64,000 nt of DNA from Eledone cirrhosa (Eukaryota): assembly GCA_964016885.1 (NCBI GenBank), contig OZ024761.1, forward strand, positions 23,684,001-23,748,000. Direction: 5' to 3'. This document shows, piece by piece, positions 30,980 to 32,357 of the stretch. The notes under the pieces are model-generated. The model was not told the origin of the DNA, ran no database searches, and worked only from the letters and a program-made list of their open reading frames with translations. Position 1 is the first letter of the stretch, and every line of letters starts with the position of its first letter. A program made the position numbers and the translations under genes.

Positions 30980-31174
30980 AAATAAAGGATTATGAGTTCA
31001 TGCAATTGACTTATGTTTCGTTACTATATATATAACCAAAAGTTTAACAAGGTTCATTGATTAATCAATGAATAAAGTTTTACAATAGATTAGAAGCACT
31101 CTACAGAAGGTTATCTGGAGTTATTAATATTACTTCAAAATATTAATAAATATAGACATTCATGTGATCAAATA

Positions 31175-31240
31175 TATTTTATTATACATATTTCAGAGGT
31201 ACTGAGCTATTTCATCAGTACGTCCTCATCAGATAAAATA
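31175..31240 (-). ncRNA. Minimal type-I hammerhead ribozyme fold (tandem unit 1)
   Basis: Minus strand: TATTTTAT-CTGATGA-GGAcGTACTGA..TCAGTACcTCT-GAAA-TATGTA-TA|ATAAAATA (8-bp stem I). Confidence 0.8.
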
Positions 31241-31508
31241 AGTTGATGTCTGACATACCTCCACTGTGCTGATGGTTCAATTCCAGTCTTGGCAGACTGA
31301 AATATGTATAATCAAATATATTTGATCACATGAATGTCTATATTTATTAATATTTTGAAGTAATATATATATATATATATTTAAAAGTTAAACAAGGTTC
31401 AATGAATGGGTTTTACAATAGATTGGAAGCACTCAACAGTGTTGGTTTTCCAGAGTTATTAATATTAGTTCAAAATATTAACAAAATAGACATTCGTGTG
31501 ATCAATTA

Positions 31509-31575
31509 TATTTTATTATACATATTTCAGAGGTACTGAGTTAACTTCAACAGTACGTCCTCATCAGATAAAATA
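31509..31575 (-). ncRNA. Minimal type-I hammerhead ribozyme fold (tandem unit 2)
   Basis: Same core and stems as 31175-31240; differences confined to the stem II loop region. Confidence 0.8.
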
Positions 31576-32357
31576 AGATGATGCATGACATACCCTGACA
31601 TAGTAGATGGTTAAGATTCAGTCATGGTAGTTATAAAATATACTTGATCACAAGAATACCTATTTTGAATTAATATTTATATATATATATAGTGAAGGCG
31701 TGTGGCTGAGTGGTTAGAGAATTGGATTCGCAATCGTAAGGTTGTGAGTTCGATTCCTGGACCAGGCGATGCGTTATGTCCTTGAGCAAGACACTTTATT
31801 TCACGTTGCTCCTTCTACCTGGAGTTGCGACCGATAGATAGTATTAGCAACTGGAAAGACGAACGGAAACATTGTTCCCTCGGTCCGATTTGACGAAAGT
31901 CGATCGTTCCTTTTATATATATAATTAAAAGACGGAGTTAAAAACTCACATTTGAGCATGACTGGGTGTTATTGTTAATAATCAGATGGTTAGTATACGT
32001 TAATATAATCTTTTTATTGATTTGTATTCGCCATTCCTTCCGTAGGTAATATGTTTGTCACTCTGGTGGATTTTGATCCCCTATGATGATTGAACATATA
32101 ATCTCTACGTGTACTTATCTCTCTCTCTATATATATATAATGACGGTGCTCCAGCATGGCCTCAGCCTGTGGCTGGAACACGTAATAAAGAAAAAGAATA
32201 ATATATATATATCGATATATATATATATATATCTCGATATAGATCCAACAGTAAATAGGGTATAAGGTACTCAATACATGTGTAGAGTGACGACAGACGT
32301 TTATATAGAAAAAGCTCCAACAAGACTAGAACTGTTTCATTCGTAGGAAACCAGCAA

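Follow-up and report, generated by a model that had tools for sequence, protein, structure and literature searches.

Insertions of Penelope-like elements are known to carry an inverted, truncated copy of the element and a tail on one side only (Craig et al. 2021, PMC8557442, cited throughout for the sections available). For the Hydra clade of C-terminal EN+ elements that source describes the motifs RW[K/R] and DKT, a CxCX5C linker, a region between GIY and YIG that lacks CCHH, CxxC and CxH around E and N, (TA)n targets and a hammerhead in the pseudo-LTR (pLTR), the elements usually being shorter than 3 kb with tails of 30-40 bp. In the Poseidon element PAc reverse transcription in vitro starts at two internal sites delimiting the tail, each of the two target strands is cut and extended, a dimer is predicted, and cleavage by the hammerhead is not needed as uncut RNA serves as the template (Frangieh et al. 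2024, PMC11167929, in the parts available). Minimal type-I hammerheads mostly occur as single dispersed motifs with a long stem II, a tiny palindromic stem III and a stem I of typically 4-5 bp, and pairs are found 100-700 bp apart on opposite strands. According to the available text of PMC4209133 they are inactive as monomers and have a low activity when paired as dimers, and in the accessible part of a 2026 preprint eight of nine Xenopus dimers were inactive in a cleavage test (bioRxiv 10.64898/2026.07.22.740005). Non-LTR retrozymes, as described in the available sections of Cervera and de la Pena (2020, PMC7229834) and of the preprint of Li et al. (2026), combine type-I hammerheads ~330 nt apart on one strand with a low GC content and descent from pLTRs, and in PMC7229834 they are one-unit tandems expressed as circles. 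Plentiful monomer RNA in linear and circular form is a further mark of this class.

The locus described here lies in a window of 64,000 nt from Eledone cirrhosa (contig OZ024761.1, positions 23,684,001 to 23,748,000 of the forward strand; coordinates below are those of the window), where two hammerheads in an intron had been read, in the original prediction, as a retrozyme-like tandem able to release a 334-nt RNA. The strand, the spacing, the low GC content and the pLTR ancestry are indeed the same as in the retrozymes, whereas the present pair differs in combining two subfamilies, a TA spacer, internal inversions and a dispersed family.

Two Minimal Type-I Hammerheads in the TRIAP1 Intron

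Hammerhead A (31509..31575, core 31567) and hammerhead B (31175..31240, core 31232) are both present on the minus strand as described, in the order stem I, CUGAUGA, stem II, GAAA, UAUGUA, UA, stem I. CUGAUGA and GAAA are intact in both motifs, stem I consists of 8 bp (UAUUUUAU/AUAAAAUA), stem II of 3+6 bp with a single C-C mismatch, and the stem III segment AUAUGUAU (UAUGUA) is self-complementary with two G-U pairs included. The core positions C3-A9, G12-A14 and U16.1-H17, stems I and II and the palindromic stem III that define a minimal type-I hammerhead are all found, and the UA cut triplets end at 31517 in A and 31183 in B, placing the predicted cuts (31517/31516 and 31183/31182) 334 nt apart. 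The long stem II, the tiny stem III, the mostly single dispersed occurrence and the opposite-strand pairs at distances of 100-700 bp agree with the minimal type-I class; the 8-bp stem I is longer than the typical 4-5 bp, pair 10.1-11.1 is G-U rather than G-C, and there is no extra base between positions 9 and 10.1. A strict scan of the whole window demanding the core, stem II and a stem I of at least 5 bp returns just five motifs, two of which are A and B, and with a loose core pattern the window has 24 overlapping matches compared with 5.1 expected. The suggested Rfam search yields no hammerhead match either at the gathering score or at E values up to 10, so the assignment rests on the manual structure. 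Elsewhere in the window two hammerhead-like inverted pairs belonging to other repeat families occur at 1054-1127 and 1404-1607 (CUGAUGA..GAAAC, CUGAAGA..GAAAG), and degenerate or partial hammerhead-bearing repeat ends lie in TA tracts at 32320-32350, 32470-32550 and 34060-34130, the first two of these also within the TRIAP1 intron.

The host gene, which is TRIAP1-like, is read from the minus strand and comprises a first coding exon of 48 codons (33605..33748) matching Pfam PF05254 (UPF0203) with E 4.6e-19, a 4.2-kb intron (29399..33604) with a GT donor at 33604 and an AG acceptor at 29399, and a second coding exon of 31 codons and a stop, starting from 29398 (29303..29398). We take PF05254/UPF0203 to be the TRIAP1/Mdm35 family. 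A 376-nt contig of run X4 (record 17) contains the exact exon junction from 33605 to 29398; run X4 is taken as RNA because it has this spliced contig, and because the contig splices the two exons, units A and B are intronic and sense to TRIAP1, in agreement with the original prediction. Spliced TRIAP1 mRNA is thus present in the X4 sample, from an individual that need not carry units A and B. A tRNA-derived SINE-like sequence with very high depth in all runs adjoins the stack at 31693-31820, and an SNORD2 snoRNA scoring above the Rfam gathering score is located at 3451-3519 on the minus strand.

Arrangement of the Stack

Each unit is composed of a long arm on the minus strand and a short inverted arm on the plus strand. 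The long arm of unit A (31375..31631) is a subfamily A pLTR running from the likely transcription start to the end of the tail with a 12-nt gap in the tail, and its short arm (31633..31676) corresponds to pLTR positions 115-169 and has an internal gap of 11 nt, its 5' end coinciding with the hammerhead cut site to the nucleotide and (TA)n flanking it at 31678-31691. A (TA)n spacer at 31366..31379, likely a remnant of the target, separates unit A from the unit B short arm (31297..31366, pLTR 100-169), which is identical to its own direct arm at 69 of 70 nt and spans GAAA, stem III and the cut site as well as the 3' strand of stem I. The long arm of unit B (31030..31295) is a subfamily B pLTR from position 1 to 266, ending in a 97-nt tail and TA. 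On this shared TA tract unit B meets tail-to-tail a third hammerhead-bearing repeat end, termed family C (30856..31034, plus strand). The unit A arm, the (TA)n between the units and the third hammerhead on the plus strand are additions to the earlier description.

The inverted repeat of unit B (31122-31196 and 31297-31371) has arms of 75 nt that are 96% complementary, and that of unit A has 35 nt at 89%. The unit A short arm differs from its own direct arm at ~5 of 44 nt in addition to the gap, which is above the 4.6% found for the family, and it may have come from another template or be an older relic. The family C hammerhead (30924-30979, plus strand) is antisense to TRIAP1 and belongs to a repeat with 2,835 exact copies of a 30-mer; it has a 5-bp stem I, a stem II closed by a palindrome that is nearly perfect and has a loop of 1 nt, and a stem III of ATATATAT. 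Family C is likewise flanked by TA with 5' ends clustering at one site, and no link to an ORF was found in 15 loci.

Assignment of the Units to a Penelope-like Element

Copy searches were made in the 3.0-Gb genome. A 31-mer across the cut site has 3,937 exact matches and a 20-mer directly behind the cut site has 4,549, the reversed control giving 0 in each case, and the pLTR family therefore has at least 3,937 copies; with the complete units as queries, the number of candidates is 3,996 for unit B and 2,103 for unit A, 40 being scored in each case. The upstream part of longer copies is an AT-rich UTR (1.1-2 kb) preceded by a GIY-YIG domain, and a pLTR is located downstream on the same strand at 22 of the 25 best GIY-YIG loci (the locus of the query itself being counted). 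The autonomous RT and GIY-YIG partner proposed for a genome-wide search is therefore found, almost in its entirety at locus L119, where the order is inverted arm, pLTR with tail, ORF, RT, CxCX5C linker, GIY-YIG, 3' UTR and a final pLTR whose end, at position 169, lies in (TA)n, with the tail of the first pLTR continuing into the ORF ~60 nt ahead of the ATG. A single pLTR-linked ORF with RT followed by a C-terminal GIY-YIG occurs at L119, L121, L125 and others, the ORFs observed in the family being broken or truncated.

The RT of L119 contains RVRWR (R replacing K), KSDKT and YRDD, and KSDKT is also present in L128. The linker CNCRNRPDC follows the CxCX5C pattern, the VYKCTVKANGITYNYIG region has no CCHH or cysteine pair between GIY and YIG, and the segments CNLCTME (CNLCxxE) and NKKSELFSNCLH (NxxSExxxxCxH) supply CxxC and CxH flanking E and N. 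All of these are the same in the Hydra clade, as are the (TA)n targets and the hammerhead in the pLTR (PMC8557442). Pfam gives no matches for five ORF pieces and the PDB none for one ORF piece, and ESM Atlas neighbours at 0.95-0.98 carry RVT_1 and GIY-YIG on part of their members. On the motifs, these neighbours and the comparison with published alignments, the parent is assigned to the Hydra clade of Penelope-like elements, the RT placement being a by-eye comparison with the alignment printed in the supplement, and each unit is accordingly identified from its sequence as a pLTR of such an element. The original reading of the motifs as minimal hammerheads of Penelope type is borne out by this linkage.

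Within the known clade the family is new. Hydra-1_Obim of octopus has another hammerhead sequence and represents a different family (PMC8557442), and none of four probe strings of the present family occurs in the supplement of that paper. The element is also larger than is usual in the clade, at ~4.9 kb (L119) compared with less than 3 kb, its tail is ~97-99 nt compared with 30-40 bp (PMC8557442), and its hammerhead differs in lying near the likely 5' end of the RNA, upstream of the ATG. The available main text of an octopus repeat annotation (PMC13282606) makes no mention of ribozymes or the Hydra clade. A 799-aa frame on contig C8 was rejected as the element ORF as it is mostly TA microsatellite. 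Loci L122, L124 and L131 hold other Hydra-like ORF families with a different linker and EN sequence, and with 54,697 candidates returned by the EN query the genome is very rich in members of the Hydra clade. On the minus strand at L031:5195-8832, upstream of the truncated element, there is a broken reverse transcriptase of non-LTR type whose C-terminal part has a restriction-like nuclease motif.

Comparison of Units A and B

Over the shared pLTR positions 1-169 units A and B are 84.1% identical, whereas their nearest dispersed copies are 97.6% (unit A) and 98.2% (unit B) identical to them, and a tree of 131 sequences places A and B in separate clades of 80 and 51 members (support 0.78 and 0.90). 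Given a mutual identity of 84% and an identity of ~98% between each unit and dispersed members of the same subfamily, A and B are likely independent insertions, for which target-site duplications are unreadable within (TA)n; the pair is not reported as a tandem by TRF. Of the 22 neighbouring pairs just 2 are on the same strand, and the clean case of these mixes subfamilies too. This is an excess, at 2 per 100 copies versus 0.04 expected at random density, and stacking on fresh TA flanks is therefore considered a habit of the family, amounting to some tens of pairs genome-wide. A second chance dimer of a subfamily A and a subfamily B copy on the same strand, 206 nt apart and both tailless, is present at L140/L141 (G000:C1:13822078-13822303). 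Units A and B are thus very probably stacked copies of the pLTR, most likely separate insertions in one (TA)n tract, and probably silent given the predicted blocking by their arms.

The original prediction had noted that the units diverge elsewhere while their cores and stems are alike. The pattern itself is observed, and in 131 copies the core and stem columns are 97-99.7% conserved compared with 83% upstream and 84% in loop II (the region edges being imprecise by about 1 nt), so that core conservation extends across the genomic copies. Units A and B have 2 and 1 rare differences, respectively, from their own subfamilies in 169 nt, which suggests from the sequence that both insertions are young. 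None of the three falls in the 55 core and stem positions, for which the chance is ~0.3; local selection on the two cores was rejected as an explanation, three differences being too few and chance accounting for the intact ribozymes. To judge by the sequences, the identity of A and B in the core and stems mirrors conservation between the parent subfamilies.

Ends of the Copies and Proposed Formation of the Inversion

The ends were determined for the first 100 matches to the 20-mer on contig C1, all of which were recovered and none dropped, a sample that is biased toward younger copies and longer arms by the single contig and the exact 20-mer. At the 3' side 60 copies are short, ending at position 169, 33 are long, ending ~97-99 nt further at about 266, and 7 end elsewhere; insertion into (TA)n is indicated by the 93 of 100 ends at two fixed sites and the TA runs that follow in the printed junctions. 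Among neighbouring pairs within 6 kb, 20 of 22 are head-to-head inverted, and these consist of 17 with one long and one short arm, one short-short, one long-long and one unclear pair, which gives long with short in 17 of the 19 classifiable pairs (P 4e-4 against 0.5). The two arms share the subfamily letter in all 20 inverted pairs and differ by 4.6% (85/1,842 nt) compared with 8.2 +/- 0.7% for random partners of the same subfamily (300 draws, lowest 6.2%). The overall structure, with pLTR repeats, an inverted 5'-truncated copy and a tail on one end, is that of a Penelope-like insertion.

The 5' ends of the 100 copies are distributed with 37 upstream of -30, where exact ends are unreliable as the references diverge, 0 in -29 to -4, 27 in -3 to +7, 35 in 8-107 and 1 at the cut site (a mosaic). 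Of the 63 ends located downstream of -30, 27 thus lie within 11 nt, a window 32-35 nt behind a TATATAAA box, which has 89 matches with overlapping loci counted, and this peak suggests a transcription start near a TATA/Inr site. Directly before the start, where a G derived from the cap might be expected, G is the commonest base at true junctions, several being due to the neighbouring arm or microhomology. Units A and B both start in the -3 to +7 window and lack the TATA box.

Ends at the hammerhead cut site are rare. The base before the cut differs in 91 of the 4,549 matches and 8 of 30 inspected are junctions, giving starts at the cut site in ~0.5% of copies compared with a background of 0.35% per nt, a count that misses junctions beginning with the expected base by chance. 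On these values the idea was rejected that past cleavage left an accumulation of arm ends at the cut site. Two short arms, 31633-31676 and L034:1507-1561, stop precisely at the cut site and are joined to the likely RNA start, both cases lying within this background. As almost no copies start at the cut site, the template is considered to have been uncut, and the few such ends among 4,549 copies give support from a second clade for uncut RNA as the template.

The long and short ends (17/20), the variants shared between arms and the 5' ends at the likely RNA start lead to the prediction that priming on the two target strands uses different internal sites within a single RNA. In the proposed mechanism the element protein would nick both strands of (TA)n, and two cDNAs would be primed on the same or a near-identical RNA, uncut at its hammerhead, at two internal ATAT(A) sites ~97 nt apart. 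With both sites near the 5' end of the RNA many cDNAs would extend to its start, and the two cDNA ends would then join head to head to give arm, pLTR and tail. The new TA flanks would draw the next insertion, building up the stack of A, B and C, and the copies without a TATA box would be read only as host intron, in which the predicted hairpins of 70 bp (B) and ~35 bp (A) would beat the ribozyme fold in the pre-mRNA until removed by splicing. Priming of two cDNAs from two internal RNA sites, one on each target strand, is the favored explanation and a reasonably probable one.

The two internal starts bounding the tail, the cutting and extension of both strands and the uncut template are the same in PAc (PMC11167929, in the parts available). 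PAc differs in showing no homology to the primer, whereas here both starts end in ATAT(A) and can pair with a (TA)n primer, and in showing no strand difference, whereas here the two arms nearly always use different sites. The pairing of long with short ends was not found quantified in the literature searched, and older papers on the structure of Penelope may contain it.

A competing explanation for this one step is that the arms arise by fold-back, with a single cDNA copying itself or DNA repair later perfecting the hairpin. In keeping with this, arms of the same insertion are more alike than random copies, and short fold-back segments are present at junctions. The outer ends are nevertheless fixed at 169 and about 266, and the arm reaching further 5' is the short one in 12 of the 17 long-short pairs, the long one in 4 and neither in 1, although a copy cannot exceed its template unless joining lost sequence. 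Fold-back is accordingly given a minor, though appreciable, chance compared with priming at two sites.

Predicted Folding and Cleavage of the Intronic RNA

Folding in the context of the pre-mRNA predicts no stem I in either unit (P 0.0) and pairing of the cut-site U of unit B with the inverted arm (P 0.999). The active folds lie above the best fold by +15.2 kcal/mol for A, +23.7 kcal/mol for B and +54.9 kcal/mol for the double hammerhead, the last falling to +7.5 kcal/mol with both arms blocked; these are equilibrium predictions that do not include proteins, ADAR or the co-transcriptional order. No circle joint or pile-up of ends is seen among the contigs that make up all the runs, a result that weighs neither for nor against cleavage. 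From the modeled energies a functional circular RNA from the stack appears unlikely.

A non-LTR retrozyme dimer, arising from multimeric cDNA or local duplication, that cuts the pre-mRNA and frees a 334-nt linear or circular RNA would be in keeping with the shared strand, the 334-nt spacing, the intact cores and the palindromic stem III. A nested double fold can also be drawn at +7.5 kcal/mol if both arms open, retrozymes themselves derive from pLTRs, and a pipeline asking for two consecutive units might score this one (bioRxiv 10.64898/2026.07.22.740005, as far as available). Against this, the units belong to different subfamilies (84% versus about 98%), are separated by (TA)n and each have their own arm; direct neighbours, at 2 of 22 pairs, include as their clean case a mixed-subfamily pair; the double fold costs +54.9 kcal/mol with the arms free; and the arm is predicted still to bury the B core in the cut-to-cut monomer. 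In the available part of the same preprint 8 of 9 dimers tested were uncleaved. Retrozymes have no ORF of their own and form head-to-tail tandems of one unit, whereas the present pLTR also flanks RT and GIY-YIG ORFs and A and B are two different units. The retrozyme-like tandem, and with it the proposed release of the 334-nt RNA, is on these grounds highly improbable. It is comparably improbable that stacking gives birth to a retrozyme, with pLTRs of different subfamilies cross-pairing once the arms have been opened by a protein or by A-to-I editing, and releasing a 334-nt circle from the TRIAP1 intron; if true, dozens of chance dimers would be raw material for tandem retrozymes.

The original prediction had further proposed the inverted segment as an off-switch protecting the host pre-mRNA, and here the predicted pairing over the unit B core is retained while the evolved switch is not, the inversion being a normal product of insertion. 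Host co-option, in which the arm is selected as a switch setting TRIAP1 output through intron cleavage, is the least probable of the readings considered and very nearly dismissed: the arm is upstream, transcribed first and covers the unit B core, and a spliced mRNA exists, but arms cover the cut site in 20 of 20 inverted pairs (partly due to the anchor) with no need for selection, and the units show only 2 and 1 rare differences from their subfamilies.

The locus itself is ordinary, being one among thousands of pLTR copies, and it serves as a caution that stacked insertions can mimic a retrozyme with same-strand hammerheads ~330 nt apart. The proposed two-site, two-strand priming is of more importance, as the family data bear on the origin of the inverted ends and one-sided tails in Penelope-like elements.

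The near-perfect 70-bp hairpin formed by 31122-31371 in the TRIAP1 intron would be a likely ADAR substrate, and no editing is seen in the contigs. Cephalopods edit heavily, and thousands of inverted insertions could provide similar double-stranded RNA.
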